In this document: positions 45,989 to 64,000 of the stretch, in pieces
How positions within the stretch are numbered: position 1 is the first letter of the stretch
How the letters are laid out: every line of letters starts with the position of its first letter
Virus record (IMG/VR): IMGVR_UViG_3300032241_002083
Span: 25,717 to 89,716 of that record
From: a virus
DNA: 64,000 nucleotides
Reading direction: 5' to 3' (one strand)
The notes under the pieces: model-generated
The model's database searches: none
Told to the model about the DNA's origin: nothing
Seen by the model: the letters and a program-made list of their open reading frames with translations, nothing else
Position numbers and translations under genes: made by a program

Positions 45989-48900
45989 TTATAATCCACT
46001 TACTATACCGGGATTTACCACATTTAATAATGGACTACCAGCTACTGGAATATTATTTTTAATACCTGTTGTATTAATTCTATTGAATCTAAAAGTAAGC
46101 GTAAATTGTATAGGCTGACTCGCAGAGTCTATTTGAAGATAAAATTTAAGATATTTTGTATGTGTTTGATTTTGAGTAACACCATTTAGATTTATATATT
46201 GATAATTTGCTCCTGTTTTAGTGTTGTCTAAAGCATTCATTTTAAAGTAAATATTAATTGGAACAGTTACAGTATTTACAGTTGTTAAATTATGAACATA
46301 CTTACCGGAACTTTGATATGAAGTATCAACTAAATCAGTCAACTCAGCCACAACTGGGTGAATAGTTGTTAACAATTTATTTTGCGAGGAAACAGATGAA
46401 GATGTATCTATCCATTTTGTAGTATCCAACAATGATTTATTGTTATTAACAAATTGTAGTATAGAATTTTGTGCAAAACCTAAATTATATTGTGTTGAAG
46501 ATAAAACATTTGTTATAGAATTTGAATTATTTGCTATAAAAGAATTCCCAATATCTTGGCTATACGCCGTCACACTTGTCGAATTTACGGATCCAAAATT
46601 AATGTTCCAAAAAAATTGATTATCTAATTGTGTTTGAGAAATACCAGATGTATCATTAGTAATCAAATTATCAGTATCATCTACCCAAAATACTTGCGGA
46701 ACTGTTGGATTATAAATAGTAGAGCTATTATTTAGATATGTTAAATTTGATAATAAACCAAGTGAGGTATTGGGTGTTATATTGGATATATTTATAAAAA
46801 AATCTTTTATAATGTAAATATTATTAGCATAAACTCTTCCAGATGGAACTCCTGGTGCTGTATATTCAGTGCAATAATCTTCACAGTTGATTATAAATGT
46901 TGATAATTGTTTATTTGTGCTGTTTATTGGTATATCATAAGCGGTGTTGTTTCTATAAAGAGTAATCTTAAGAGTTCCTTGTGCTTTTGATATTTGTGCT
47001 TGTAAATCAGATATAGTATTTGCTAAATTAGTTAAATATTGATAAAGATCGATAGCATTGCCACTAGAATCTTTAAATCCTGATAAAATAACATCTGTAT
47101 TTAAAAAATAAGTATTATTATTTACAGTTGTTTTTTGTGATAATAATTGATTTAGACCTTGATTATTTAAAGTTTGCAAAACATCATTTTTTGCATTATC
47201 TATCATAGAATTTGTAATAATATTCTGAGCGTTTTCATAAGAATTTAATAAACTATTAGGAAAACTTATACTAATAATATTAGACCAATCTGAATAAAGA
47301 GGAGAATCTGGAAATCCAACTTCAGAAATTGAACGTATTCTTATTTGCACAGTTTCATTAGGTAAAATAGGAATACTAAGTTGATTTATATCTATATTGC
47401 CGGCATTGTTTTGATCAGGGATAACCCAACTAAAAGTATTTGTAGAATCATCAAATGTTCTTTCAGCGGCTATAGTAGGTAAATTTTGCCAATTAGAAAA
47501 TATAGCGGTCGAACTTGAATTTGTATTTACTGAAGTATCATATAACTTAAAAGTTAAAGGAGCAGTTTCTGATCCATCAGCAGATAATAATTTATATTCA
47601 ACATCGAATTTAACTATTTGTTGTGGCTTTCCAACTGCCTGTGAAGCATTGGAAAAAGTAGGAACAACAGGCGCTGGTATAGTCCAAAATCCCCTAACTG
47701 CATATTCTGGTGTAACATTAGGTGCTGTATTTGAACTAGCTAATATTTGATTATTAATACTTGTTTTTTGAGCAGCAACCATATTATATTTAGATTGTAA
47801 ATTAATTAAATCATTATTAGCTTTTTGTCTATCGGCTGGTGTTGTAAAACGAGTGACTTGTATTTGTTTATTTTTTGATTCAATAGCGGCTGAAATTTGA
47901 GTAAGTTGAGAGTCTAGTTGTGCAACTTGTGATGCTTGTGATTTTAAAACATTAATATTCTGACTATTTGTTAAATGCAAATTAGTTTGTACCACCTGAA
48001 AATTATTGACATTTAATATAGGTGCAGTAGGAGTTATACCTTCTCTTAATGGAACATTCTTATTTACTAAATCTTCCAAGGCTGAACCATAATCTGTCAC
48101 CACAGAATTATAATATTGAAGCATAGAAAGACCATTATAATTATCGGAAGAAATCAAATTTAAATTATTACTCCAAAATGCTATACCAGAACTCCAGTTT
48201 TTACTTATAATATTATTCGTAGTATTTAAAGATTTTAAAAATATAACAGCATACTCATTATATCCTATTGGTATATTTACACTTCTATCCGTTAAAATAA
48301 CTGAATAGAATTTTAAACCATTAATTATATTAATCGGAACTGGTTGATTTCCTGTAACTGCTGTCAGTTGAACGCGGAAGTCAGAAGCGGATGTTGAAAT
48401 ATTTACTACCTGATAAATAGTGTTTGAATTAACAGTGTTAATAATTAACGAATCTCCTAAAGCTAAAGTTTTAGTAAGTCCCGATAATAAATCTGTATAG
48501 TCCAAAGTGTTAAAATAATACCATAAAATATTATTATTATCAATTGCTGCTTTTAAAACTGTGAATAATCCAGAATATTGTAATTGATTTGGATTTAATT
48601 GAATTGTTTCTTGTTTATACTCAGGATTCCCAGGTAGTAAAATACCAGGAGTTGTTGATTGCCAAATTAAAAAATCGTTCAACACAATATTAGTTTGTCC
48701 ATTATAAGTTGAGTTAAATGAACTTAAAGCAGAATTACCTGCTGATGTCAAATTTCCATTTATATCAGTTTCAAATCCAATTAAATATTTTATGTATAAA
48801 ATTTCTCTAGTATCATTATCAATTTTGCCAGTTAAGTCAATATTTATAAACAATTCAGGATCCATTAAATTATCAACTATGTAATTTCTTTCGGAAACAA

Positions 48901-49346: not shown

Positions 49347-51203
49347 ATGAATATTATAGACAATCTTGTCGAACAACTTAAAATTTATAATCAGGCTTAT
49401 CGTTCTGGCGAATCTCTTATTTCTGATGTTGAATACGATTTACTCGTGGAACAATTAGAAGAATTGGATCCAAATAATCCATTCCTTGATACTGTTGGTA
49501 TTCAAATAGCAGATAAAGAAAGAGAAAGAAAACTTCCTATTCCTATGGCTTCTATGAATAAAGTTAAATCAATAGAAGAATTATATGATTGGGCAAGATT
49601 GAAAGGAATACCTTTAACTACATTGGTAATATTAACCCCTAAATTTGATGGACTTTCTTTATGTGTTGATGAAATAAAAGATAAAGCAACTACAAGAGGT
49701 GATGGTAAAATGGGTCAAGCATCTGATGAACATTATAAATTAATAACAAATCATCTTAAAAAGGATGTAGTTTTTTCTCCATTTTTTGCTTTCACCTACG
49801 GCGAAGTCATGATGTCTAAATCAAATTTCAACCAAAAATATGCTATTAATTTTGCTAACCCAAGAAATTTTGTTGCTGGTTTAATTAATAACAAACAAGC
49901 AACAGAGCCACTCAAAGATACTGCGTTTATAAAATATGGAGGTATATTAAAAACAGAATTTTCTGATAAATTTTTCTTAAAACACGAAATTTTAAATGCT
50001 TTAAATAACTGTCAGGAAATACAAGTTCCATTTATAGGCACTACTATTGGCGATTTAACAGAAGATTTTTTAGTTAAAACATTTAAAGAGTGGTCTATTG
50101 AATATGAAATAGATGGTATAATTATTGAAATAGATGATTTAAAATTACAAGAAAAACTTGGACGTGAGCGTTCTGGTAATCCTTGTTGGGCAAGAGCGTT
50201 TAAATCTCCTAAATTTGAGCAATCAGCAATCACAACTATTACTGGTATAACTTGGAATATATCAAAACAAGGTTATTTAAAGCCTACTTTGCATATTGAG
50301 CCTGTTAGATTAGATGGAGTAACTGTATCAAATGTTACAGGTAATAATGCTCGTTTTGTAAAAGATATGGGTCTTGGTATAGGTGCTAAAATTCGTGTAG
50401 TTCGTTCTGGCATGGTTATTCCTCTTGTAAAAGAAGTTATTGAACCAGTTGAATTCCAAATGCCAGATATACAAAATATCGGCTGGAATGAAAATGAGGT
50501 TGAATTAATGACTTTAACTGAAACCGACGAACAAAAATTTAAACAATTAGTTTCTTTCTTTGAGATTTTAGAAGTTGAAAATGCCGGTGAAGGAGTATTT
50601 TCTCAACTCTGGGATGCTGGTTATAAAACGGTTAAACAAATTTTAGAATTGAAACCTTCTGATATGGAAAGATTAGAAGGTTTCGGTAAGCGTAAAGCAG
50701 AAATAGTTTATAATGCTATTCAATCTAAAATTAAAGATGTGCAGCTTTCTAAACTACAACATGCAAGTAATTTGTATAAGGGTTTGGGCTCCAAAAAGCT
50801 AGCTCTTTTAGAACAATTTGGTTATGAAGATAAGCCAAATATAGAAGATATTTTAAAAATTCAAGGATTTTCAAATATATCTGCTATTTCATATCTGGAA
50901 GCATTTGATAAATTTAAAATCTTCATAAAAGATTTGCCTTTAACCATAAATAAGAAAGAAATCGTTAAATACTCGGATTCTTTGGAAGGTAAATCTTTTT
51001 GTTTTACGGGAGTAAGACGACAAGATTTGGAAACTATTATAGAAGAAAATGGCGGCAAAGTAGCTTCTGGTGTTTCCAGAAACTTAACATATCTTATCTG
51101 CAAGGATAAAAACTCTGGTTCATCTAAATTAGTTAAGGCAGAAAAATTGGGTGTAATATTATTTGATATAGAAGAATTGGAAAAATTTTTAGAAAAGGTA
51201 TAA
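49347..51203 (+). CDS. ligA: NAD-dependent DNA ligase
   Basis: Y..G...ISD.EYD, PKFDGLS, TRGDG..G, NPRN, IDGIII, OB fold, HhH, BRCT (FCFTG...GG.V..GVS). Confidence 0.95.
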   Translation: MNIIDNLVEQLKIYNQAYRSGESLISDVEYDLLVEQLEELDPNNPFLDTVGIQIADKERERKLPIPMASMNKVKSIEELYDWARLKGIPLTTLVILTPKFDGLSLCVDEIKDKATTRGDGKMGQASDEHYKLITNHLKKDVVFSPFFAFTYGEVMMSKSNFNQKYAINFANPRNFVAGLINNKQATEPLKDTAFIKYGGILKTEFSDKFFLKHEILNALNNCQEIQVPFIGTTIGDLTEDFLVKTFKEWSIEYEIDGIIIEIDDLKLQEKLGRERSGNPCWARAFKSPKFEQSAITTITGITWNISKQGYLKPTLHIEPVRLDGVTVSNVTGNNARFVKDMGLGIGAKIRVVRSGMVIPLVKEVIEPVEFQMPDIQNIGWNENEVELMTLTETDEQKFKQLVSFFEILEVENAGEGVFSQLWDAGYKTVKQILELKPSDMERLEGFGKRKAEIVYNAIQSKIKDVQLSKLQHASNLYKGLGSKKLALLEQFGYEDKPNIEDILKIQGFSNISAISYLEAFDKFKIFIKDLPLTINKKEIVKYSDSLEGKSFCFTGVRRQDLETIIEENGGKVASGVSRNLTYLICKDKNSGSSKLVKAEKLGVILFDIEELEKFLEKV

Positions 51204-51909
51204 TTATACCTTTTCTAAAAATTCCCAAATAAAGCCATAGCTTTTACCATATTTGCTATATGATTTATTACATGCTCTTGAAATACAAGACCTATCAAAT
51301 TTATAATAATTTGCCGCTTCTGCTATTGACTCCCATATTCTTATAAATTGACCATCTAATGATTTCTGGATTACTTGTTTTCTTTGGTCAATTTTTTCCT
51401 TTAGTGGTTTAGGCATTTTATTATATTTTAATCCTCTGTGTCCGTTTCTTATATTTTCCTTTTGTTCGTTAGTGAGTTTTTTGCCTCTCTTTATAATACT
51501 CATTTTTTCTATACTTTCCTTACTATGTTTTTTCCCTTTAAATGGATGTCCATTATTTTTAAATGGTTTTTTACTGCTACACTTAATTTTTGTTTAGTAA
51601 TTTCTGATTTTTTATTTCCTTTCTTACCATAGGTGCTATTTCCACCAATAGATAAGTTGTAACCAATTTACAAATTATTCGAATTGTGTGTTTTATCCAA
51701 AAAATTTCTCTTTCGCACAATAAATTATTATCTATTTCCTCAATTATTTCTCTTACGAAATTTTCTAATACATATTTACTTATGGATTGTTTGAACAATT
51801 TACCACTTCCATAATAATTAGTTCTCATAAATTTATCTTTACTAAAAATTCTTTTTACAATATAAATTTTGCCATTTATTAAATTTGTTGTTTTATATAT
51901 CACTCCCAT
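51204..51909 (-). pseudogene. Frameshifted GIY-YIG homing endonuclease with NUMOD3/NUMOD1 tail
   Basis: VIYKTTNLINGKIYI..YYGSG..RE.FWI in one frame; LTNEQKENIR and W.SI.EAA...ISRAC..YGF.W in another. Confidence 0.75.
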
Positions 51910-52310: not shown

Positions 52311-52922
52311 ATGGCAGAAAACACAACTACCCAACAAGAATTATTATTTAAACAACGCACTGGCGAATCCTTCGCTTATTTTTACGAAAAATTTTATCCA
52401 AGATTAGTTTACAACATTAATGGAATTACAAAAGATGAATATCTTGCAGAAGATGTAGCTACCGAAGCTTTCATCAAAGCATTTGAAAAAATTGATCAAT
52501 ATGAAAAAGGCAAAGCACAATTTTCAACTTGGCTATTTACAATAGCAAGACATTTGGCTCTTCAAGAAATCAAACAAGGTAAAAAGACCATGTCAATGGA
52601 TACTCAATTAGACGAAGAAGGCACAACTATGAAAGATTTTATTCAGGAAGAAACTAATAATGATGAATTCTTACACATTTTAAATAAAAAGAAAGCAGAA
52701 ATAATAAAGGATGAAATACCTAAATTAAAAGAACCATTACAAACGGTAATTCGTATGAGAGAAATTGATAAAATGCAATATAAAGATATTGCTGATGCAC
52801 TTGACCGCAATTTATCAACGGTTAAAAGTCAAATTAAAAAAGCAAGAGAAGTTTTGATTAAAGCCGTGGAGAAAAAATTCAAAGATCTAGAAGATAACTT
52901 AGAATTAGAAGAATTTTTTTAA
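52311..52922 (+). CDS. ECF-type RNA polymerase sigma factor
   Basis: Region 2 AEDVATEAFIKAF...FSTWLFTIARH; region 4 Y.DIA..L....STVKSQI..AR. Confidence 0.9.
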   Translation: MAENTTTQQELLFKQRTGESFAYFYEKFYPRLVYNINGITKDEYLAEDVATEAFIKAFEKIDQYEKGKAQFSTWLFTIARHLALQEIKQGKKTMSMDTQLDEEGTTMKDFIQEETNNDEFLHILNKKKAEIIKDEIPKLKEPLQTVIRMREIDKMQYKDIADALDRNLSTVKSQIKKAREVLIKAVEKKFKDLEDNLELEEFF

Positions 52923-54611: not shown

Positions 54612-55628
54612 ATGGAAAAAATTAAACATTATTCAGAAGAAGAAATCCTCTATCTAAAGGAAAATTATGCTACTGCGGCAAAGCAAGATATTTTATATAA
54701 ATTAAAAAGATCTTGGATTTCTATACAAAAAAAGGCATTTTTACTTGGTTTAAAAAGAATTAACTACGAAAGTAAAAATAATCATAAATATTCTAAATTA
54801 CTTTTAGAAACACCAGAAACTTACTATTGGTTAGGCTTATTAATGTCAGATGGGCATTTTAACAAAAACCACTTTATAACATTATCAATAAATGATATTG
54901 AGCATACTAATAAATTACGAAGTTATTTAGGCATGGAAAAAACTGATAAAAAACTGATATCTATATCAGACATGCCAACATTTAAAAAATTAACTGAAAA
55001 ATTTAAAATAAATAATAATAAGACTTATGAACCATGTGATTTATCTTGTATTACTAATGAGGATTTATTATTTTCATTAATAATAGGATTTATAGACGGA
55101 GACGGAACAATAAGTAATAAATATTTAGGTATAGTAAGTCATAAAAATTGGTATAACAATCTTTATTTATTCAATCAAGTATTGAAAAATACAACAAATA
55201 TATACTATAGTAATAAGTTAATTAATATACGAGTATCAAGAATAAAATTATTAAAGGAAATAAAACAAAGAGCAATTTCTCTCAAATTACCTTTCTTGGA
55301 AAGAAAATGGAATAAAATTAATCTGGAGCAAATAACTAAAAACGAAAAGAAAGATTATTGTTTTCAACAATTTGAAAAAGGCTTATCACCTGTTGATATA
55401 ATCAAGTTAGGAGTAGCCAAGAAATGTGTTTATAAATATTATGCTATTTACAGAGATATTAAAAATAATAATGAAATATTTAATAGCAAGGATAAAATGC
55501 AATATTGTTTTCAAAAGTTTGACGAAGGATATTCAAAGGAACAAATTATCAACTCAGGTAAAGTCAGCCGTTCTTGTGTTTATAGAAATTATAAAAAATA
55601 CCATAACGACAAACCGAAAGAGAATTAA
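54612..55628 (+). mobile_element. LAGLIDADG homing endonuclease, paralog of 14067..15146
   Basis: YWLGLLMSDGH and LIIGFIDGDG; LP.L.RKW shared; tandem C-terminal HTH. Confidence 0.8.
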
Positions 55629-55868: not shown

Positions 55869-57138
55869 CAACGAAGATTTGTATATTACGGTAATGTTTC
55901 CATACCCATCCTCAGATGGGTTGCATATAGGACATGTTTATAATTATGCTATAATGGATAGTTGGTGTCGATATAAAAGACACATCGGAAATTCTGTTTA
56001 TCAGCCTTTCGGCTTTGATGCGTTCGGCTTGCCCGCTGAAAACTATGCCAAAAAAGTAGGACGAGATCCAAAAGATGTAACTTATGAAAACATAGAAAAG
56101 TTCCGTATTCAAATGAAACAAATGAATACAGAATTCAAAGAAGTATTGATTACCTCTGACCCTTCTTATCAAAAATGGACTCAATGGTTGTTTTTGAAAT
56201 TGAAAGAGCATGGTTTGGCTTATAAAAAAGATGGTGAAGTAAATTACTGTCCTTCTTGTGAAACTGTATTGGCTCGTGAACAAGTAAAAGATGGTAAATG
56301 TGATAGATGTAGTTCTGTCATTGAAATGAAAGTTATGAATCAGTGGTATTTTAAAATTACTGATTATAAACAACGTTTGATTGATAATTTAGATAAAATT
56401 GATTATCCTACTTCTACTATTAATGCACAACGCATGTGGTTGGAAAACTTGCATGATTGGTGCGTAAGTCGTCAAAGAAAATGGGGTTGTCCAATTCCAA
56501 TTGAAGGTGAAGAAGATACAATGGATACTTTTGTTTGTTCCTCTTATTATTTAATCCGTTATTGTGACCCTGATAACGAAAATGAATTGTGTTCCAAAGA
56601 TAAATACAAACAAGTTGATATTTATGTTGGCGGCAATGAACATGCGACAGGACATTTAATATTCGCCCGTTTTATAAATATGTTTTTGTATGATATTGGC
56701 GTGGTTCCTTGTGAGGAACCCGTAAAGAGGTTCTTTAGTCAGGGAGTTATATTATATAATGGCGAAAAAATGTCAAAATCAAAAGGAAATACTATAAACC
56801 CAGACGATTATGATCAGGACGAATTACGCTTTTTTCTTATGCAACTTGGTCCGTATTCTGACGGTGGCTCCTGGAATGATAAAGCGATAAATGGAATCAA
56901 ACGATTTATCAATAGATTTAAAGAATGGATGAGCAGAGAGGGCGAAGATGTAATAGATGTAGAAACATTTAGAATAAAGATATTTGAACTAACAGAAAAA
57001 ATGAAATTTAATAAAGTGGTATCTGAATTTTTTATTCTTTTGAATTCTAATAGAACGAAAAATCTTAAACCAGAAATCAAGGAAGAATTAATCTCTATAT
57101 TGGAGATATATATGCCTGGATTGAGAGATAAGTTATAA
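55861..57138 (+). CDS. leuS: Minimal leucyl-tRNA synthetase (425 aa; lacks CP1 editing and C-terminal domains)
   Basis: MFPYPS..LHIGH, GFDAFGLPAENYA, Zn knuckle CPSC..CDRC, DWCVSRQR.WG.PIP, MDTF..SS, GG.EHA..HL..ARF, KMSKSKGN. Confidence 0.85.
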   Translation: MYNNEDLYITVMFPYPSSDGLHIGHVYNYAIMDSWCRYKRHIGNSVYQPFGFDAFGLPAENYAKKVGRDPKDVTYENIEKFRIQMKQMNTEFKEVLITSDPSYQKWTQWLFLKLKEHGLAYKKDGEVNYCPSCETVLAREQVKDGKCDRCSSVIEMKVMNQWYFKITDYKQRLIDNLDKIDYPTSTINAQRMWLENLHDWCVSRQRKWGCPIPIEGEEDTMDTFVCSSYYLIRYCDPDNENELCSKDKYKQVDIYVGGNEHATGHLIFARFINMFLYDIGVVPCEEPVKRFFSQGVILYNGEKMSKSKGNTINPDDYDQDELRFFLMQLGPYSDGGSWNDKAINGIKRFINRFKEWMSREGEDVIDVETFRIKIFELTEKMKFNKVVSEFFILLNSNRTKNLKPEIKEELISILEIYMPGLRDKL

Positions 57139-57148
57139 TAAGAAAGTC

Positions 57149-57190
57149 ATAGGAGCAAAATATTCAAAATCCTCATTATAAAATTTATTA
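57149..57190 (+). repeat. 42-nt exact copy of 45625-45666
   Basis: ATAGGAGCAAAATATTCAAAATCCTCATTATAAAATTTATTA at both loci. Confidence 0.9.
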
Positions 57191-57257
57191 CCTAAAAAAT
57201 ATAATAATTTTAATGTTTTTTATAAAGTAATAGGCGTTATTAGTCCAAGAAAATAGT

Positions 57258-57464
57258 ATGAGATTAGATAGAATGCGATGGTTTGGTCCATCAAGACCCG
57301 AAGATAAGCCAGGTGTAGAAGGTTGGCGACACAGCAGATTATTCAAAGTAGTTAGGCATCAAGGTGCTAAAGCTATTCGTGCTATAAGCAAAAAATTATG
57401 TAAGAAATCTATATCAGATAATGATATAGATTTTCCTACGTCTAAATATATAAGAAATCACTAA
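57258..57464 (+). CDS. Basic hypothetical protein
   Basis: ORF track. Confidence 0.5.
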   Translation: MRLDRMRWFGPSRPEDKPGVEGWRHSRLFKVVRHQGAKAIRAISKKLCKKSISDNDIDFPTSKYIRNH

Positions 57465-57515
57465 TGGATATAAAATTAATAGGTATTTGGAATGATTCAG
57501 ATTCAATTTTAGAAG

Positions 57516-57692
57516 ATGGCGAATAAAAATAAAAAACCACGAGATATAATTAAAGAAACTGAAGAATATTTAGTTTTCCTTAAAAAGAGATTAGATTCAG
57601 CCAATTATAAAGCCAATGTTTCCAAAGAAGAATATGATGAAACAAAGGCTAAATATGATAAGGCTAAATTAAGATTAAAACTATTAAAGTAA
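57516..57692 (+). CDS. 58-aa coiled-coil protein resembling the ValRS C-terminal tRNA-binding arm
   Basis: IIKETEEYLVFLKKRLDSANYKANVSKEEYDETKAKYDKAKLRLKLLK; below the ORF-track size cutoff. Confidence 0.45.
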   Translation: MANKNKKPRDIIKETEEYLVFLKKRLDSANYKANVSKEEYDETKAKYDKAKLRLKLLK

Positions 57693-57746
57693 TAATAAGT
57701 AAGGTTTATGAGTTTTGTATAAAAAATAAAATTTGTGGATTTAAAA

Positions 57747-57932
57747 ATGACTGGTAAAGCAATCATGAAATTCAACGGTGGGCTTGGCTCTATCATTTGT
57801 TCCAAATGTGGAGTTATAATTAAAACAGGTAAAAATTTTACTGACGAAGAGTGGAAAGCAATTAGATGAGAATTGAAATTAAAGGCACAATTTTGTGATT
57901 CTTGTAAAGCAAAATTAAGAGAAGAAAAATAA
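57747..57932 (+). pseudogene. Small Zn-finger gene with in-frame TGA (57867-57869)
   Basis: KFNGGLGSIICSKC...KAIR*ELKLKAQFCDSC: the two CxxC pairs flank the stop. Confidence 0.65.
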
Positions 57933-57977
57933 ATTAAAAATAAAAGCAACCTTAAAGGTTGCTTTTATTTTTAATTT
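57931..57977. terminator. Bidirectional terminator
   Basis: AAATTAAAAATAAAAGCAACCT-TAA-AGGTTGCTTTTATTTTTAATTT. Confidence 0.8.
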
Positions 57978-58288
57978 TAAATTTTATTAATTTCTGTTTT
58001 AACTTCGCTTTCTACATTAGAAGCTTCTGTTTTAACTTCGCTTTCTACATTAGAAGCTTCTGTTTTAACTTCACTTTCGTCTTCTTCTCCTAAATTTAAC
58101 ATATACCTTGTGTAATCTGCTAAACATTTAGTTTCTTCTGAAACGTGTGTTTTTATACTATTAATTTCATTATTAAAATGATTTTTAATATTGTTTTCTA
58201 AATTATCAAATTTAGATGAGATCCCTGAGTTTCTACCAACGAAAAAACCAACTATCAAAGACCCAATTACTAATAAAATTGTAATCAT
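57977..58288 (-). CDS. Membrane-anchored protein with 33-nt (ESEVKTEASNV) tandem repeats
   Basis: N-terminal TM helix; ~2.6 copies of an 11-aa repeat. Confidence 0.65.
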   Translation of the reverse strand: MITILLVIGSLIVGFFVGRNSGISSKFDNLENNIKNHFNNEINSIKTHVSEETKCLADYTRYMLNLGEEDESEVKTEASNVESEVKTEASNVESEVKTEINKI

Positions 58289-58452
58289 AATTTTTATTTT
58301 TTATATAATAAAAAATTTAAAAAGTTTAAAAGATTTGAAATAAATTTTGCTCGTTCAAAACTTTTTCGTAATTTTGTATAAAATAACAAAACAGCAAAAA
58401 AGCACTTTTAGAATATAATATATATAATTATACAAAAAAAGTCAAAATAAAT

Positions 58453-58483
58453 TTTGCGATTACAAAACTTTATTGTATCTTTG
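58453..58483 (+). promoter_or_regulatory. Bacteroidota-type promoter of the tRNA region
   Basis: TTTG (58453)-N19-TATCTTTG (58476). Confidence 0.7.
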
Positions 58484-58598
58484 CTGTATAATAAAAAAGA
58501 TTAAAAATACTTAGTAAGACAGGGTAAATATCTGGACAAGTTTTTAAAAGAAAACAGGATAAATATCTGGACAGTCTGAAAAGTTTTAAAATATAAAA

Positions 58599-58670
58599 TG
58601 CGGGATAGAGCAGTGGTAGCTCGTAAGGCTCATAACCTTAAGGTCATTGGTTCGAATCCAGTTCCTGCAT
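58599..58670 (+). tRNA. tRNA-Met (CAT), initiator-like body
   Basis: TGCGGGA/TCCTGCA acceptor; TAAGG-CTCATAA-CCTTA; GGTTCGAATCC. Confidence 0.9.
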
Positions 58671-58700
58671 CAAATAATAACAATTTTAAAAAATCATAGT

Positions 58701-58793
58701 ATGAAACATTTTAGCTCACATAAACATTCGTTTAAATTCTGGTTTAGTAACCAGGGTTCGGTAGAGTTATGTTTCAATAACAAGACTTCTTAA
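58701..58793 (+). CDS. Leader peptide 1 (MKHFSSHKHSFKFWFSNQGSVELCFNNKTS)
   Basis: Codons 2-16 use only K/H/F/S/W; sits within attenuator hairpins. Confidence 0.75.
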   Translation: MKHFSSHKHSFKFWFSNQGSVELCFNNKTS

Positions 58794-58850
58794 AAAGAGT
58801 TATTGTAAGAAACTGAAAAAGCCGAACTTTTATAAAAGTTCGGCTTTTTT
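58702..58850 (+). promoter_or_regulatory. Transcription attenuator 1 (protector, antiterminator, terminator)
   Basis: 58702-58717 pairs with 58764-58776; GGGTTCGGT (58754-62) pairs with GCCGAACTT (58821-29); terminator AAAAAGCCGAACTTTT-AT-AAAAGTTCGGCTTTTTT (58816-58850). Confidence 0.8.
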
Positions 58851-58854
58851 ATAT

Positions 58855-58941
58855 GGTGATCGTAGCCGGTAATGGATGCCGACCTGCCTGTGGAGCAGGA
58901 ATAATTTCGATTTAATGCGGGTTCAATTCCCGTCGATCACC
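58855..58941 (+). tRNA. tRNA-His (GTG) with G-1 and a 17-nt variable region
   Basis: G-GTGATCG/CGATCAC-C; CCTGC-CTGTGGA-GCAGG; GGTTCAATTCC. Confidence 0.9.
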
Positions 58942-58947
58942 CAAAAA

Positions 58948-59058
58948 TTAGTTGCCCAGCTTGTTCCGTCAAGGGTTATAAAACTATACATTGTTAACGG
59001 AGCCCATGATGGATACTCTACCAAAAAAGTGAGTGAGAAAAGTTGTAACAATGACTAA
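58948..59058 (+). ncRNA. Candidate structured RNA between tRNA-His and tRNA-Phe
   Basis: Nested pairings TTAGTTG/TGACTAA, CAGCTT/AAGTTG, GTTCCGT/ACGGAGC, TACTC/GAGTG; GC-richer than background. Confidence 0.4.
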
Positions 59059-59064
59059 AAATAA

Positions 59065-59136
59065 GGTGTCGTAACATAGAGGTTTATGTGTTGATCTGAA
59101 AAATCAAAAATGCTAGATCGTTACTAGCCGATACCA
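59065..59136 (+). tRNA. tRNA-Phe (GAA)
   Basis: GGTGTCG/CGATACC; TTGAT-CTGAAAA-ATCAA; T arm GCTAG-ATCGTTA-CTAGC. Confidence 0.85.
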
Positions 59137-59197
59137 CAAAAATAACTTCAAAGGAAGACGAACCTATTTTATATATAAGTAAATAACAAATATAAAA

Positions 59198-60079
59198 ATG
59201 GGTGCGAAATTAAAAGAATGGACAGAAAAAGAAAAGGAAATACTTTTTAAATATTTCCCAAGTATGGGGTGTAATTATTGTTCGAACTTAATAGGAAGAA
59301 CAAAAAGAGCGTGCCAAGAAATGGCAAAAAAACTAAAATTAGAGAGAGATTTAAATAAGTATGAAGATAAGGAAAAATTAGAGGAATTAGTTAAAAGTTG
59401 TAAAACATATACAGATTGTGTAATAAAATTGGGATTATCTCCCAGATGTTCTGGTAATTTTCAAACTATTAAAAAATATATTATGTTGCATAATATAGAT
59501 ATTTCACATTTTGAAAATGGATTTCAAATAGGTAACAACCCTCAGAATAAGAAAGAATTATCTGAAGTTTTAGTAGAAAACTCTTTTTTTAGTAGATCTC
59601 ATTTGAAAGAGAGATTATATAAAGAGGGATTAAAAAAGAAAGAATGTGAGATATGTGGAATGGGAGAAGATTGGTTTAATGGAACAAAAATAGTTCATAT
59701 TTTAGATCATATAAATGGAGAACCTTATGACAATCGTCTTGAAAATTTAAGAATTGTTTGTCCAAATTGTAATTCAACATTAGAAACAAATTGTGTTGGG
59801 AATAAAGTTAATAAAATATATGATTCTAAAAAAGATGAATATAAAAGTGAAAAAACACATAAAAAATGTAATTGTGGTAAAATAATCTTGAAAGAAAGTA
59901 AATTTTGTTTAGAATGTAATGCCAAAAGTAAAAGAAAAGTTATTAATAGACCAACGTTTGAAGAATTGGTTAAGTTAATAGAAGAAAATGGTAATACTGG
60001 AACAGGTAAAATATACGGCGTTAGCGAATCTGTCATAAGAAAATGGTTAAAACAATATAAAAATAAAGCATTAATATAA
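59198..60079 (+). mobile_element. HNH homing endonuclease inserted in the tRNA operon
   Basis: CEICG, LDHING...DNRLENLRIVCPNC, C-terminal HTH. Confidence 0.85.
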
Positions 60080-60081
60080 AT

Positions 60082-60154
60082 ACGGGTATGGTGAAAATGG
60101 CTATCATTTTTGACTCCAAATCAAAAGTTCCGGATTCGAGTTCTGGTGCCCGTG
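60082..60154 (+). tRNA. tRNA-Trp (CCA)
   Basis: ACGGGTA/TGCCCGT; TTTGA-CTCCAAA-TCAAA; CCGGA-TTCGAGT-TCTGG. Confidence 0.9.
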
Positions 60155-60161
60155 CTAAATT

Positions 60162-60244
60162 GGAAGATGCGTTGCATGGAGCAAAAACAGTTTTGAAAAC
60201 TGTCGTATCGTTAATTCGGTAGGGGTCGGTTCCTCCATCTTCCT
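60162..60244 (+). tRNA. tRNA-Ser (TGA), divergent D/T arms
   Basis: GGAAGAT/ATCTTCC; ACAGT-TTTGAAA-ACTGT; long variable region. Confidence 0.7.
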
Positions 60245-60264
60245 CAATATTAAAAAAAATTAAG

Positions 60265-60300
60265 ATGAAACAGATAAAACAGAAACAGAAACAGGTATAA
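60265..60300 (+). CDS. Candidate leader peptide 3 (MKQIKQKQKQV)
   Basis: Four AAA and four CAG codons; followed by a long hairpin and tRNA-Lys(TTT). Confidence 0.45.
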   Translation: MKQIKQKQKQV

Positions 60301-60341
60301 AGTAGGTACAATCAATTGATATGTAGCCTATTTATATAAAT

Positions 60342-60417
60342 GCGCTATTAACTCAATTTGGTTTAGAGTACCAAGCTTTTAACTTGGGAGTTGTAGGTTC
60401 GAGTCCTACATGGCGCA
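60342..60417 (+). tRNA. tRNA-Lys (TTT)
   Basis: GCGCTAT/ATGGCGC; CCAAG-CTTTTAA-CTTGG; GGTTCGAGTCC. Confidence 0.92.
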
Positions 60418-60462
60418 CAAAAATTTTTAGTCAGGTGTTCTACTATATTTTATATATAAAAT

Positions 60463-61074
60463 ATGGGAAAATTTACTAAAAATTATTTAAAAAAATATGA
60501 TTGGGTACAAATACAAAATTATTATAATGAGGGGAATTCATGTAGAGATGTAATCAAAAAATTTGATATATCAAGTGCCGGATTGTCTTTTGCGGTAAAA
60601 TCTGGGGTTCTAAGAACTAGGACAAAAAGTGATTCAAATATATTAGGGCATAAAAAATTTCCACAAAAACATTCTGATTCAACCAAAAAAAAGATAAGTG
60701 AAAGTAGAATTAAATATTTGAAAGATAATCCAGATAAAGTTCCGTATTTATTAAACCATAGTAGTAGGGAATCTTATCCTGAAAAATATTTTTGGGAAAT
60801 ATTTGAAAAAGAAAATTTAAATATTAAAAGATATCTTCAAGTAGGATTATATGAATTAGATTTTTATAACCTTGATAAAAAAATAGATATTGAAATAGAC
60901 GGTGAGCAACATTTCACAGATAAAAAAATAGTTGAGTCTGATAAAAGAAGAAACAGTTATTTAATTGATAATGGATGGACAATAATTAGAATTAGATGGT
61001 CGAATTATCAAAAATTAAATTTTGAAGAAAAGAATAAATATATTGAAGAATTAAAGAAAAAATTGGTTTCGTAG
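60463..61074 (+). mobile_element. DUF559/Vsr-like endonuclease with NUMOD3 motif
   Basis: KHSDSTKKKISES, S.PE, YELDF, IEIDGEQH, D..R...L...GW.IIRI. Confidence 0.8.
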
Positions 61075-61138
61075 CTTAAATGGATAAAGCTCCCGACTCT
61101 TAATCGGAGGACTGTGATATCGTACCTCACCGAAACCA
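61065..61138 (+). tRNA. tRNA-Lys (CTT)
   Basis: GGTTTCG/CGAAACC; CCCGA-CTCTTAA-TCGGG; T loop ATCGTAC; 5' end overlaps the upstream ORF end. Confidence 0.85.
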
Positions 61139-61151
61139 CAAAAATAAAAAT

Positions 61152-61394
61152 ATGGAAAATTATAAATCAATAATAGAGCAACATAAAGTTCAAATAGGAA
61201 ATTATATTATTTCTTCAAAAGACCAATTAGAAGAATACCGAAAAAAGTATTTAAGCGCAAATGGTGTTGTAAAACAAGTTTATAATCAATTAAAACAAGT
61301 TCCTGCGGAAAACAGGAAGCAAGCAGGAGAATTGTTAAGAGAATTAAAATACTTAGCAGAAAATTATTACGAAAAAAACCAAAACAAGACATAA
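61152..61394 (+). CDS. Stand-alone PheRS alpha-subunit N-terminal coiled-coil-like protein
   Basis: LEEYRKKYLSANG.V...Y..LK.VPAENRKQAG..L.ELK matches the PheS N-terminal LE..R..YL.KKG.....LP.EER...G..IN.LK pattern. Confidence 0.7.
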   Translation: MENYKSIIEQHKVQIGNYIISSKDQLEEYRKKYLSANGVVKQVYNQLKQVPAENRKQAGELLRELKYLAENYYEKNQNKT

Positions 61395-61415
61395 AAATTA
61401 TAATATATATATAGT

Positions 61416-61475
61416 ATGAAAATAACATTAACATCGTCAAGTCGCAGTCCTTATAACTTCGAAATCCGAAGATGA
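61416..61475 (+). CDS. Leader peptide 2 (MKITLTSSSRSPYNFEIRR)
   Basis: TCG TCA AGT CGC AGT core plus CGA AGA; sits within attenuator hairpins. Confidence 0.75.
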   Translation: MKITLTSSSRSPYNFEIRR

Positions 61476-61532
61476 TAGTGTTATGTAGATACTTCAAAAC
61501 TCGGATTTTAAAAAAAATCCGAGTTTTTTTTT
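61422..61532 (+). promoter_or_regulatory. Transcription attenuator 2
   Basis: 61422-61435 pairs with 61471-61484 (13/14); AAATCCGA (61462-69) pairs with TCGGATTT (61501-08); terminator AAAACTCGGATTTT-AAAA-AAAATCCGAGTTTTTTTTT (61496-61532). Confidence 0.8.
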
Positions 61533-61534
61533 AT

Positions 61535-61623
61535 GGTGGGTTACTCAAGAGGATTAAAGAGGCTTGTTTGCTAAACAAGTAGGGCAGTAAAATGTTGCGT
61601 GGGTTCGAATCCCACATCCACCG
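61535..61623 (+). tRNA. tRNA-Ser (GCT)
   Basis: GGTGGGT/ATCCACC-G; CTTGT-TTGCTAA-ACAAG; long variable arm; GGTTCGAATCC. Confidence 0.92.
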
Positions 61624-61629
61624 CTGAAT

Positions 61630-61858
61630 ATCCAGATAGTTTAATTGGAAAGAACGATCCTAAAACGGCAGGATTACTCTGTGAGGGATTTTGACTTGCT
61701 ACCAAAGGCATTCAAATTATGGTTGTATTTCAACCGTTGTAAGACCAATGGGTGTGAGGATTAATTGTATGGTTGCGGATGCACTGATATAAAATCAGGA
61801 AGCGAGTTTTCCAAGATTAATTGCAAAATCTATACGGGTTCGAGCCCCGTTCTGGATA
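61630..61858 (+). ncRNA. tRNA-shell ncRNA B (229 nt) with a giant structured insert
   Basis: ATCCAGA/TCTGGAT-A acceptor; TAGTTTAATTGGAAAGAAC D arm; ACGGG-TTCGAGC-CCCGT T arm; insert closed by GGATTTTG/CAAAATCT. Confidence 0.75.
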
Positions 61859-61866
61859 CAAAAAAT

Positions 61867-61953
61867 GGCTCCATAGTTTAATGGATTTAAAACGCCCCGC
61901 TACGAACGGGGAGACAGATATGTTTTATGAGGGTTCGAATCCTTCTGGAGTCA
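61867..61953 (+). tRNA. tRNA-Arg (ACG) with a long variable arm
   Basis: GGCTCCA/TGGAGTC; CCCCG-CTACGAA-CGGGG; variable AGACA-GATA-TGTTT. Confidence 0.9.
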
Positions 61954-61959
61954 CTATAA

Positions 61960-62048
61960 GGAAAGATGGCAGAGCGGTTGAATGCTTCGGTCTTGAAAAC
62001 CGATGACTGGCGTAAGTCGGTCCGTGGGTTCGAAACCCACTCTTTCCT
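61960..62048 (+). tRNA. tRNA-Ser (TGA)
   Basis: GGAAAGA/TCTTTCC; TCGGT-CTTGAAA-ACCGA; long variable arm. Confidence 0.92.
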
Positions 62049-62054
62049 CTTACT

Positions 62055-62143
62055 GGAGAGTATAGGAGGTGACAGGTGGTCCCCGCTCGTTTGGAAAACG
62101 AGAACCCATTAGGTTGGGCGAGTTTCGATTATTCTGCTCTCCT
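62055..62143 (+). tRNA. tRNA-Ser (GGA), divergent
   Basis: GGAGAGT/GCTCTCC; CTCGT-TTGGAAA-ACGAG; TTCGATT loop. Confidence 0.75.
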
Positions 62144-62323
62144 CTTTAAAATTAATTTAAAAATGAAAGTTAAACAACAAATTAGAGAAAAATTCCGGAA
62201 TTTACTGCTGAAAATCTTTATAAAAAGATTAAATCCAGTTATGAAATAGCATATAAAAAATCTGAAAGACTTTAACAAAATAAAAATATGTTAAAGTCAA
62301 TTTAATTTTGTATATTTGTATTT

Positions 62324-62671
62324 ATGAGTAAAGTAAAATCTTATCAAATAATGTCTAAAATAAAACTGGTTCGCAAAGTTTTAGATTATGGTTTTCGAAA
62401 AGCTTTGGAATATTCTGATTTTGGTGAGGAAGAAGAATATACAAAAAGTCTAGAAACTAAGACGAAAGAAGAATTGAGAGAAATTATAAAGGAACTTAAA
62501 GACGAATTAAATGCTGGTTCTGTTAGAAACCAAAACCCAGGTTTAAAGTTTTGTATAGGTAAATGTCAAAGAGAGTATATTCCAAAAGATGGTAATTTAG
62601 AAGTTTATTGTCCGTCATGTGATAGGACAATAGCGGTTAGACCTATTAAAAATGATTATAAGGATATATGA
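62324..62671 (+). CDS. Hypothetical protein with C-terminal Zn ribbon
   Basis: CIGKC...CPSC; preceded by TATATTTG. Confidence 0.6.
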   Translation: MSKVKSYQIMSKIKLVRKVLDYGFRKALEYSDFGEEEEYTKSLETKTKEELREIIKELKDELNAGSVRNQNPGLKFCIGKCQREYIPKDGNLEVYCPSCDRTIAVRPIKNDYKDI

Positions 62672-62825
62672 TTAAAAGAATAAGAAATTGGACTGATAAG
62701 TCTTTTGAAAATAGGCAATATTTTATAGCACTATGGAACTATGCCGAGATATTTTATTTTTATTGTATTAAGTTTAACTCTTTTATCTATATGGATAGGA
62801 TTTAAAATTGGAATGAAATTTTTAT

Positions 62826-63056
62826 ATGGGAAAGAAAAATAAAGAGTTTGATATAGAAAGGTCAGAATATGACGATAAGGTTGAGGAAATCCGCAAAAAG
62901 AAAAGAAAGTTGCGAGATATCCAAGAACCTGGTCTTGTTAAAAAGATTAAAAAGGATCTTAAAGCCGAGCAACGTGCGGCAAAGCGTTCTAATAAGAATG
63001 CACTTCGTAATTATTTAAAAGACGAAATAAATAAATATGATGATGGAGAAGAATAG
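62826..63056 (+). CDS. Basic coiled-coil hypothetical protein
   Basis: ORF track. Confidence 0.6.
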   Translation: MGKKNKEFDIERSEYDDKVEEIRKKKRKLRDIQEPGLVKKIKKDLKAEQRAAKRSNKNALRNYLKDEINKYDDGEE

Positions 63057-63294
63057 AATGCAATTTATTTCTAAAAAAGAATTAAAATTAGGTGAAATTT
63101 GTTATATAGAAAAAAACAAGGTTTATTTTTTAGAAAAAAATGAATCATGGAAAGACAAAGGCAGACCTTCTACTCATTTAATTTATGATGAAGAAGATGC
63201 ATTAGTATTTACTCTTAATTCTGAATTATTAGAAGAATACTTTATGAGTGTGGCAGAGTATCGTGATACTCAAATAAATTCAATTTTAGATTAA
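63037..63294 (+). CDS. Hypothetical protein with EYRDTQINSILD tag
   Basis: Motif family. Confidence 0.65.
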   Translation: MMMEKNRMQFISKKELKLGEICYIEKNKVYFLEKNESWKDKGRPSTHLIYDEEDALVFTLNSELLEEYFMSVAEYRDTQINSILD

Positions 63295-63296
63295 TT

Positions 63297-63536
63297 ATGG
63301 GTAGTTTAACATCGATGATAAATGATTTATATGATGATTATGTTTATTTTTGTAAAACTCTAAATGTAGAATCAGTCGGAATGCATGATAATAAAATATC
63401 ATTTTTAATACATGAATATCAATTATTGGAGAAAATAGGATTTAAGACAAAAGAAGATTTTTATGAAGTTTTAAGAAAGGCGGAAAATCGTGATAAAAAA
63501 ATAAAAGAGATTTTAGATGATAAAATGCATATGTAG
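63297..63536 (+). CDS. Hypothetical protein with ENRDKKIKEILDD tag
   Basis: Motif family. Confidence 0.65.
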   Translation: MGSLTSMINDLYDDYVYFCKTLNVESVGMHDNKISFLIHEYQLLEKIGFKTKEDFYEVLRKAENRDKKIKEILDDKMHM

Positions 63537-63759
63537 AGAATCATTATCTTTTTTAAAAAAAGATTCAATTTATTATGTAGATATTGCTTTATCTAAAACA
63601 AATTATCCTGATGAATTATTTACGGATTATTTAGAAGTTTTTGATTCAGAAGAAAAATATCTTGGTGGGTTTTGGATAGATAAAGATAGGTATTTTATTG
63701 ATATATCTGAATTTAGGGATGAAAGAATAAATCAAATTTTAGATGAGAAAGGTGATTAA
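63517..63759 (+). CDS. Hypothetical protein with EFRDERINQILDE tag
   Basis: Motif family. Confidence 0.65.
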   Translation: MIKCICRESLSFLKKDSIYYVDIALSKTNYPDELFTDYLEVFDSEEKYLGGFWIDKDRYFIDISEFRDERINQILDEKGD

Positions 63760-64000
63760 TAAATTGAAGGTAGTTATCATTAAAGATATTTATTTTGAAT
63801 TTGATATAAATAGTTTAAGATTGGCATCTGGTTATATTTATGATTTAGAAATTTGTGAATCAGGCACTTATACATTCTTAATTAGTGACCCCAAAATCCT
63901 TCCGGTTAATGCTACAAATACATGTTACTTCTATAAAGCGGAATGTGAAAGTATTGAAATTTCAAAATATTTTTGCACATTAGCCGAATGGCGAGAATTA
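63752..64000 (+). CDS. Hypothetical protein (3'-truncated) ending YFCTLAEWREL
   Basis: GTG start overlapping upstream stop; frame open to window end; start of the family motif. Confidence 0.6.
   Translation, partial: MINKLKVVIIKDIYFEFDINSLRLASGYIYDLEICESGTYTFLISDPKILPVNATNTCYFYKAECESIEISKYFCTLAEWREL

Follow-up and report, generated by a model that had tools for sequence, protein, structure and literature searches.

The window analyzed here is a stretch of 64,000 nucleotides (nt) of viral DNA, bases 25717-89716 of an 89,716-bp IMG/VR virus contig (IMGVR_UViG_3300032241_002083) that is rated 17% complete, with a GC content of ~27%. On its plus strand, a tRNA-Met gene is followed by a short open reading frame (ORF), then by an intrinsic terminator, and then by a tRNA-His gene, the first of a tRNA operon. 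Ten tRNA genes lie in the surroundings, along with three homing-endonuclease-like ORFs, a gene of the sigma-70 family and a half-size gene resembling class-I aminoacyl-tRNA synthetases. We conclude from the sequence that the short ORF and the terminator probably make up a ribosome-mediated leader-peptide transcription attenuator that controls the phage tRNA operon.

The leader ORF (58701-58793, plus strand) consists of 30 codons and a stop, with the ATG at 58701-58703 and the TAA at 58791-58793, and encodes the 30-residue peptide MKHFSSHKHSFKFWFSNQGSVELCFNNKTS. It is open in one frame only, as the +1 and +2 frames contain 2 and 6 stops. Codons 2-16 (58704-58748) form a regulatory block that specifies exclusively Lys, His, Phe, Ser and Trp: AAA CAT TTT AGC TCA CAT AAA CAT TCG TTT AAA TTC TGG TTT AGT. 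This codon string had been quoted in an earlier interpretation made from the letters alone (the sequence-only reading), whose span, 58701-58941, takes in the leader, the terminator and tRNA-His; we found it in the sequence letter for letter. It had also been claimed there that each of these codons is decoded by tRNAs encoded downstream, AGC and AGT by the tRNA-Ser(GCT) of operon 2, and the set of tRNA genes called by ARAGORN agrees with this under wobble rules. With simple wobble rules, the downstream tRNAs read 15 of the 17 codons at positions 2-18, all of codons 2-16 among them, compared to 4.7 expected. The match of the leader rises from 11/17 to 15/17 when the Ser and Arg tRNAs of operon 2 are counted.

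The spacer 58672-58855 had a minimum-energy fold of -50.7 kcal/mol (ViennaRNA), compared to -25.0 +/- 3.4 kcal/mol for 200 shuffles, none of which was as good (z -7.5). In this single-sequence fold, a protector domain (58702-58776) is built from an outer stem, 58702-58717 paired with 58764-58776, that encloses two hairpins at 58722-58733 and 58735-58758. The second of them, the inner hairpin AATTCTGGTT/AACCAGGGTT (-10.4 kcal/mol), pairs segment 1 with segment 2; AATTCTGGTT represents the codons Lys-Phe-Trp-Phe, and its pairing with AACCAGGGTT sequesters the 5' part of the antiterminator. The antiterminator itself, segment 2 (CAGGGTTCGGTA, 58752-58763), is complementary to the 5' arm of the terminator (58819-58830), and the duplex energy of -13.1 kcal/mol was equalled by 3/500 and 7/500 dinucleotide shuffles of the leader in two runs. 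When the leader was folded alone, 9 of the 12 nucleotides of segment 2 were paired upstream.

The intrinsic terminator (58817-58850), AAAAGCCGAACTTT-TATA-AAAGTTCGGCTTTT followed by TT, is a hairpin of 14 pairs with an energy of -17.4 kcal/mol. Its 5' arm occupies 58817-58830, the loop 58831-58834 and the 3' arm 58835-58848, while the T run extends to 58850; the terminator thus ends 4 nt before G-1 (58855) of tRNA-His. The sequence-only reading had proposed the 58702-58717:58764-58776 protector, an inner hairpin hiding a part of the antiterminator, and an alternative pairing of the antiterminator with the terminator 5' arm. The protector and the inner hairpin both appeared in the minimum-energy fold of 58672-58855, and the alternative pairing is the -13.1 kcal/mol duplex that shuffles rarely equalled. 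A scan of 56000-64000 against Rfam (E up to 1) found no T-box and no leader or small-RNA family at or near threshold; the best matches were Thr_leader, on the minus strand (24.1 bits vs the cut-off of 55), and HrrF (24.2 vs 77). The possibility that 58702-58776 is a decayed tRNA was rejected, as neither ARAGORN nor Rfam produced a match there.

The effect of a translating ribosome was modeled by masking 28 nt per A-site codon in a transcript cut at 58834, before the 3' arm of the terminator. The probability of pairing between segment 2 and segment 3, the terminator 5' arm, was 0.83-0.99 for A-site codons 2-15 and 0-0.10 for codons 16-29. With no ribosome on the leader this probability was 0.30 and the protector was the minimum-energy fold. 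According to the mask model, the antiterminator would be freed wherever within codons 2-15 a ribosome stalls, which fits the proposal of the sequence-only reading that one leader combines five amino-acid signals as an OR gate.

As one leader might be due to luck, relatives were examined for the same arrangement. The nearest record in the phage collection was LR745206.1 (634,780 bp), with 75.8% amino acid identity over the synthetase-like protein (tblastn); LR756501.1 (735 kb) is more distant, its synthetase-like protein being 34% identical (tblastn). LR745206.1 (W01) and LR756504.1 (W02) were tiled completely, and each hairpin with a T run situated at most 120 nt upstream of an ARAGORN tRNA was listed. 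The 17 rows of this listing comprised one duplicate, one negative example and 15 units, and a 16th unit was spotted by eye behind a tRNA-like gene uncalled by ARAGORN. These first 16 units (two in the window, seven in LR745206.1 and seven in LR756504.1) were all tRNA-adjacent, and each had an ATG ORF of 16-38 amino acids with the stop 18-33 nt ahead of the terminator stem. In the negative example, from LR745206.1, the terminator before a lone tRNA-Met follows an ordinary ORF of at least 71 amino acids. Altogether we found 22 units of leader and terminator in four genomes: two in the window, seven in LR745206.1, eight in LR756504.1 and five in LR756501.1.

The composition of the leaders varies with the tRNA genes behind them. 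For example, the leader MTTMNLNMTMNLTLNVVNITL.. precedes genes for Asn, Arg, Leu, Val, Ile, Thr and Met tRNAs, ..APVNPQPQDQDP.. precedes Pro, Asp (four genes), Pro and then Gln (three genes), MTTTQQIQQQQINQ precedes three Gln genes, MKTIAMIIRMRIIR.. precedes Arg, Ile and Met, and ..IAIVEIAVIGGAEEGV.. precedes Glu, Ala, Ile, Val, Gly and Glu. The second leader of the window, MKITLTSSSRS.., stands before Ser, Arg, Ser and Ser. In LR756501.1 the leaders of five clusters are rich in M/Q/I/E, in I/C/D/N/Y, in L, in W/H/F/K/S and in R/T/V/A/G/P, respectively, so that jointly they name all 20 amino acids (loci L094-L099 and L100). For the LR756504.1 cluster Leu, Leu, Ser, Cys, Ser, Ser, Leu, Leu, which at first appeared to be without a unit, a Leu/Ser/Cys leader was predicted in advance; it was found further upstream as MKAMILSLCLSLSLSLQKLGVVGVCKVIS (beginning with MKAMILSLCLSLSLSLQ..), followed by a terminator.

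To quantify the correspondence, we assigned to each of 16 units, as its own-tier tRNA set, the tRNAs called by ARAGORN before the next unit begins, allowing gaps of no more than 2.5 kb. The expected codon matches were calculated from how often each amino acid is used in ORFs of 150 or more amino acids. At this level, 132 of the 270 codons at positions 2-18 matched, compared to 39.5 expected. The own tRNA set ranked first among the 16 for 10/16 leaders, counting a tie with a homologous unit of another genome as a first rank, and none of 200,000 permutations of leaders against sets reached the observed sum. Both within LR745206.1 and within LR756504.1, the true assignment alone, 1/5040, reached the observed total.

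When the whole downstream cluster was considered for 21 units, 212/355 codons at positions 2-18 matched (71.8 expected), and a downstream anticodon read 185/355 under simple wobble rules. The same nucleotides gave 64/355 and 47/355 matches in frames +1 and +2, and in all 21 units an ATG-to-stop ORF holds in one frame while the other frames contain stops. The match also depends on position: it was seen in 4-10 of the 21 units at codons 2-7, in 15-20 at codons 8-16, and in about a quarter from codon 19 on. First-tier leaders contain the codons of nested second-tier operons as well.

The pairings recur along with the codons. In 16/21 units a segment of the leader is complementary to the 5' arm of its own terminator to a degree equalled by at most 25/500 shuffles; this antiterminator segment is always in the second half of the ORF, directly after the regulatory block. 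When the leader was folded by itself, segment 2 was paired with the regulatory codons upstream of it in 19/21 units. Between leader families, the stems of the terminators show no sequence relationship. The predicted layout across the units is the classical 1:2 / 2:3 / 3:4 one.

We also searched for homologs of the window's own leader. The spacer 58672-58855 had no match by blastn against 50,697 phage records, where the tRNA and HNH parts alone matched; an exact 25-mer of the spacer and a stricter degenerate pattern each gave 0 matches in viral contigs, and there was no second copy of the spacer in its own contig. A search for related loci with the LeuRS-like protein found none, whereas tblastn against phages gave the relatives described above. 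A scan of IMG/VR with a pattern of motifs shared with LR745206.1 and LR756501.1 returned 43 matches. In nine, on AT-rich contigs, the match lies in an ORF of the same family and His/Phe/Trp/Lys tRNA genes come next; the remaining 34, with no tRNA downstream, were discarded as chance matches. Because the pattern already demanded TGGTTTA, TTCGG and CCGAACT, the nine are informative in their flanks alone.

Two close relatives, L129 and L135, have an identical KHFSSHKHSFKFWF block, the same fold and an initiator-like tRNA-Met upstream, and their terminators end 6-8 nt before tRNA-His. In the common consensus fold of G0, L129 and L135, 30/30 protector pairs are kept in at least two of the three sequences. 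The differences in the inner hairpin of L129 and L135 are two one-sided changes that keep the pair, G-C to G-U and U-G to U-A, and the terminator carries one double change, U-A to A-U. Since a 12-homolog alignment was column-shifted in the terminator of some rows, anchored pair tables were used for comparing pairs.

In more distant homologs the antiterminator has been rebuilt so as to match the terminator of the same unit: in LR756501.1 and L114 it is TTCGGGGTT against AACCCCGAA, and in this lineage it is extended by GGTT opposite AACC of the terminator. In the lineage of LR745206.1, AG stands opposite CT, and the Ser-codon stretch AAATCGA pairs with the antiterminator itself. The 58754-58762:58821-58829 pairing, whose lack of conservation the sequence-only reading had named as grounds for giving up its proposal, is kept in L129 and L135, and distant homologs form it anew from other letters. 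A further contig, L128, carries two more, unselected units, with YYYEAEG before Glu and Tyr tRNAs and ISVVIATGAG before Ile and Gly. At the sequence level, the features that characterize a leader-peptide attenuator are accordingly present at the locus: a leader ORF with start and stop, a matching codon cluster, an intrinsic terminator, antiterminator and protector pairings, and an arrangement kept in homologs.

Upstream of the leader lie two promoter-like elements on the plus strand, which we regard as candidate promoters: copy 1 (AAATAAATTTTGC ... TAATTTTG) at 58338-58378 and copy 2 (AAATAAATTTTGC ... TATCTTTG) at 58445-58485. Their exact 13-mer occurs in the window only twice, at 58338 and 58445, and leaders of LR745206.1 are preceded by analogous AAATAAATTAGGTAGA..TATATTTGTA elements. 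They may resemble the Bacteroidota promoter with its motif -33 TTTG / -7 TAnnTTTG. Between these elements and tRNA-Met there are two 23-nt direct repeats (AAGACAGGGTAAATATCTGGACA; 58516-58538 and 58551-58573), 91% alike and 35 nt apart, that may be a protein-binding site.

The tRNA-Met(CAT) gene (58599-58671, plus strand; ARAGORN, Rfam 65.4 bits) is initiator-like, as it aligns with the E. coli initiator metZ (identity 0.75) rather than with the elongator metT (0.65). It is probably on one transcript with the leader, since the gap to the leader ATG is just 29 nt. Met tRNAs directly ahead of leaders in five contigs (the window; L129, 7531-7690; L135; L128, 10257; LR745206.1, 364870) are all initiator-like, with identities of 0.71-0.88 to metZ vs 0.51-0.65 to metT, and all lie outside the attenuators. 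Met tRNAs within the attenuated operons of LR745206.1 and LR756504.1 are not initiator-like. In LR756501.1, three initiator-like genes are inside a cluster, yet behind their own promoter-like element. That tRNA-Met would escape the attenuator had been suggested from its location upstream of the terminator, and the initiator type of the gene adds to this; a shortage of initiator tRNA could not be gauged by elongation stalling, so a location outside the gate fits the attenuator model.

Downstream, tRNA-His(GTG) (58855-58942, plus strand; called by ARAGORN as 58856-58942; 40.4 bits) is the first gene behind the attenuator and has an encoded G-1 and an unusually long variable arm. The rest of operon 1 (59065-61139, plus strand) comprises tRNA-Phe(gaa) at 59065-59137, tRNA-Trp(cca) at 60082-60155, tRNA-Lys(TTT) at 60342-60418 and tRNA-Lys(CTT) at 61065-61139, all on the plus strand and called by ARAGORN, as well as the homing-endonuclease-like ORFs 59198-60079 and 60463-61074. 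A second-tier attenuator follows (61416-61532, plus strand), with the leader MKITLTSSSRSPYNFEIRR at 61416-61475, a terminator at 61496-61527 plus a T run, and a predicted antiterminator CGAAATCCGAA of -10.9 kcal/mol for which 13/500 shuffles were as good. Behind it are the tRNAs of operon 2 (61535-62144, plus strand), Ser(GCT), Arg(ACG), Ser(TGA) and Ser(GGA); the Ser codons appear in the first leader too.

We propose the following course of events. Transcription would start at the promoter-like elements and pass through tRNA-Met into the 30-codon leader, where a ribosome would load on the nascent RNA. If charged Lys, His, Phe, Ser and Trp tRNAs are plentiful, the ribosome would pass codons 2-16 and cover segment 2 while the terminator is made, so the 58817-58848 hairpin would form and transcription would stop at ~58850. 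If no ribosome loads, the protector fold (segment 1:2 and the outer stem) would hold segment 2, again with termination as the expected outcome. A stall at any of codons 2-15, for want of a charged tRNA, would melt the protector and leave segment 2 free to pair with the 5' arm of the terminator. Polymerase would then read through into tRNA-His, Phe, Trp, Lys and Lys, after which the second, Ser/Arg attenuator would gate Ser, Arg, Ser and Ser. The outcome would be a negative-feedback supply of tRNA with one gauge per operon, in which first-tier leaders also sample the codons of nested operons. Host shut-off, a tRNA-cleaving defence and the phage's own codon demand are candidate causes of shortage. 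Translation of the leader, termination, read-through and the cause of shortage are all steps that we infer from the sequence.

Several observations weigh against this model. In the minimum-energy fold the AUG sits inside the outer stem. The stop codon lies 28 nt beyond segment 2, and a ribosome parked there leaves segment 2 uncovered, with P(2:3) of 0.86; therefore, termination in the plentiful state must rest on timing or on fast re-forming of the local hairpin. For the full-length RNA at equilibrium, the terminator had a probability of 1.00 in every masked state, so the switch must be kinetic. A better-than-chance antiterminator is missing in 5/21 units, and the core 5-bp pairing in the nine homologs, having been selected by the search pattern, is not independent evidence. 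Some units match poorly: at the own tier W02-6b has 1/17 and W01-E 4/17, and at the codon level W01-A2 has 4/17 and W03-WHFKS 8/17. Finally, amino-acid starvation would also trigger the switch without extra tRNA being useful.

The geometry of the stop codon, which departs from the textbook trp model, is also where a different account has its foothold. The terminator and the antiterminator could be a genuine switch whose state is set by general translation capacity, a protein or a small RNA instead of codon-specific reading; ribosomes would be slowed as in antibiotic-induced leader attenuators, and the codon mirror would be a tuning of sensitivity or a by-product of the origin of the units. Such an account keeps the alternative structures, which are the best-supported part of the analysis, and the two 23-nt direct repeats could be the site of the protein. 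Still, it leaves unexplained why 22 leaders name the amino acids of their own operons (0/200,000 permutations, 1/5040 per genome and a successful prospective prediction), as well as the restriction of the match to one frame and to codons 8-16, and we consider it unlikely. We find it considerably harder to believe that the leader RNA is untranslated and senses tRNAs directly, either like a T-box with many specifier triplets or as a tRNA-derived small RNA with its own terminator. The 58702-58776 domain, ~75 nt with a closed stem and internal hairpins, would suit such a role, and T-box RNAs are established to couple tRNA status to an antiterminator; however, no T-box or other leader family reached the Rfam threshold, ARAGORN called no tRNA there, and in all 21 units the triplets share one frame from ATG to stop while other frames hold stops. 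We know of no precedent for one RNA binding up to seven tRNA species.

Chance association deserves consideration too, as short ORFs are common in AT-rich DNA (103 ORFs of at least 25 amino acids in 12 kb), and in LR745206.1 the terminator before the lone tRNA-Met merely follows an ordinary gene. By this account the tRNA-Met transcript would simply stop at an ordinary terminator, and the genes from tRNA-His on would be transcribed from another promoter or by leakage. The gap between the T run and tRNA-His is, however, just 4-7 nt, which leaves no room for a promoter. The permutation, frame, codon-match and antiterminator statistics weigh against coincidence, and the peptide block, the fold and the synteny are conserved in L129 and L135 and in seven further homologs. 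We give this explanation the least credence, next to none, and retain the codon-specific leader-peptide attenuator.

Some tRNA genes of the relatives have no unit in front of them. In LR745206.1 these are Cys at 270989, Arg at 3337 (complement strand), Met at 522651 and the group at 419836-421559; in LR756504.1, the start of the 136390 cluster, the genes at 281120 and 336606, and the internal Asn at 134208 and Arg at 133266; in LR756501.1, the two tRNAs with CTA anticodons (amber readers) and the 228-kb group. We also noticed tRNA-like genes uncalled by ARAGORN directly behind terminators, at ~365190-365260 in LR745206.1, at ~309815-309890 in LR756504.1 and at several places in LR756501.1. They include GTA (Tyr) and CCA (Trp) anticodon loops, and the codons of the leaders suggest their identity.

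Many leaders of LR745206.1 and LR756504.1 share an N-terminus, MKT(I/V)N..NIA or MTT..., as well as, ahead of the ATG, a 5' hairpin and then TAATATATAAGAA. These shared parts suggest that the units arose as paralogs by duplication and that their regulatory blocks were rewritten later.

In the cultured Caulobacter phage phiCbK (JX100813.1), annotated rho-independent terminators at 48120-48166, 49745-49769 and 51465-51502 stand just ahead of three tRNA blocks. Its gp083 (45 amino acids) has Leu, Ser, Pro or Lys at 23 of 44 residues and precedes a block of Pro, Pro, Lys, Lys, Leu (three genes) and Ser (two genes), which is suggestive.

Long variable arms are normal for Ser, Leu and Tyr tRNAs only. 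In the window, tRNA-His(GTG) at 58855-58942 measures 87 nt, ~17 nt of which form the variable arm, and tRNA-Arg(ACG) at 61867-61954 has 88 nt. One of the two tRNA-His genes of L135 is 91 nt long, while the tRNA-His genes of L129 have 74 nt.

The endonuclease ORFs found among the tRNA genes are HNH-, DUF559/Vsr-like- and LAGLIDADG-like (59198-60079, 60463-61074 and 54612-55628). Being inside operon 1, the ORFs at 59198-60079 and 60463-61074 would be transcribed under the attenuator unless they have promoters of their own. An 80-residue ORF at 61152-61394, between tRNA-Lys and the second attenuator, corresponds solely to the N-terminal domain of the phenylalanyl-tRNA synthetase alpha subunit (PF02912, E 1e-11). 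Between convergent ORFs that lie upstream of the tRNA region there is a perfect 20-bp palindrome (57931-57977) resembling a bidirectional terminator.

The sigma-70-family gene at 52311-52922 suggests that the tRNA region is transcribed by a bacterial RNA polymerase and is hence subject to intrinsic terminators. According to a preprint on huge phages (10.1101/572362), genomes above 634 kbp belong to a 'Mahaphage' clade together with the Lak phages, with predicted Bacteroidetes hosts. From the tblastn match to LR745206.1 we infer that the window is part of an uncultured Mahaphage/Lak-like megaphage.

The leader-peptide attenuators of enterobacteria are the closest known systems. They include the multivalent ones of thr (Thr/Ile) and ilvGMEDA (Ile/Val/Leu) as well as those of trp, his, leu and pheA. 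The phage units share with them a short, putatively translated leader with regulatory codons and predicted mutually exclusive protector, antiterminator and terminator pairings, and, as with thr and ilv, several amino acids per leader. Unlike them, the phage units would gate tRNA genes rather than biosynthetic enzymes; their leaders list up to seven amino acids that mirror the tRNA set, the units are nested, about half of them have the stop 20-40 nt beyond the antiterminator, and there is no sequence similarity, with no Rfam leader family matched. The E. coli pheST operon, with its pheM leader, is likewise a case of leader-peptide attenuation of a component of the translation apparatus, but the target is a synthetase, one amino acid is involved and the gene is bacterial. 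T-box riboswitches similarly sense tRNA status and choose between terminator and antiterminator upstream of translation-related genes; however, a T-box is untranslated, binds one uncharged tRNA directly and has the conserved T-box sequence.

The possibility of Phe-rich leaders at the E. coli tRNA-Phe genes pheU and pheV was rejected, as K-12 shows plain promoters ~40 nt upstream and no leader. The trn operon of Anabaena sp. PCC 7120 is an array of supernumerary tRNAs that is silent by default and turned on when translation is impaired (PMC8421152, PMC10272220). Its control differs: the repressor TrcR binds direct repeats and so acts on the promoter (PMC8421152, PMC10272220), and in PMC8421152 attenuat-, terminator and leader peptide each had 0 occurrences. 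The array was rejected as a precedent because it is repressor-controlled and not attenuated. No account of leader-peptide attenuation of tRNA genes was found in the literature searched, with subscription journals and supplementary files outside the search.

To our knowledge, leader-peptide attenuation has been known for amino-acid operons and one synthetase operon but not for tRNA genes, and the regulation of phage tRNA genes has been essentially unknown. The mechanism proposed here would be a known one, of the multivalent thr/ilv type; new would be the tRNA-gene target, the breadth of up to seven amino acids and the nesting. With somewhat better than even confidence, we extend the proposal to the clade: its megaphages may run their whole tRNA complement as self-gauging operons, each opened only by a ribosome stalled on codons that its own tRNAs read, with nested second-tier gauges for subsets and the initiator tRNA outside the gates. 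The result would be a tRNA-pool homeostat that also acts as a sensor of host tRNA depletion, by shut-off or by an anticodon-nuclease defence, and replaces the missing tRNAs.

The leaders offer a sequence-only guide to which tRNA genes form one regulated unit and to the amino acid of non-canonical tRNA-like genes, and the design could be used as it stands to sense tRNA charging through multiple inputs. If the proposal is true, it bears on transcription-translation coupling in Bacteroidota, on the near-complete tRNA sets of large phages and on the way these phages cope with tRNA-cleaving defences of the host. The virus would then measure the decoding capacity of the host cell per codon class and top it up on demand.

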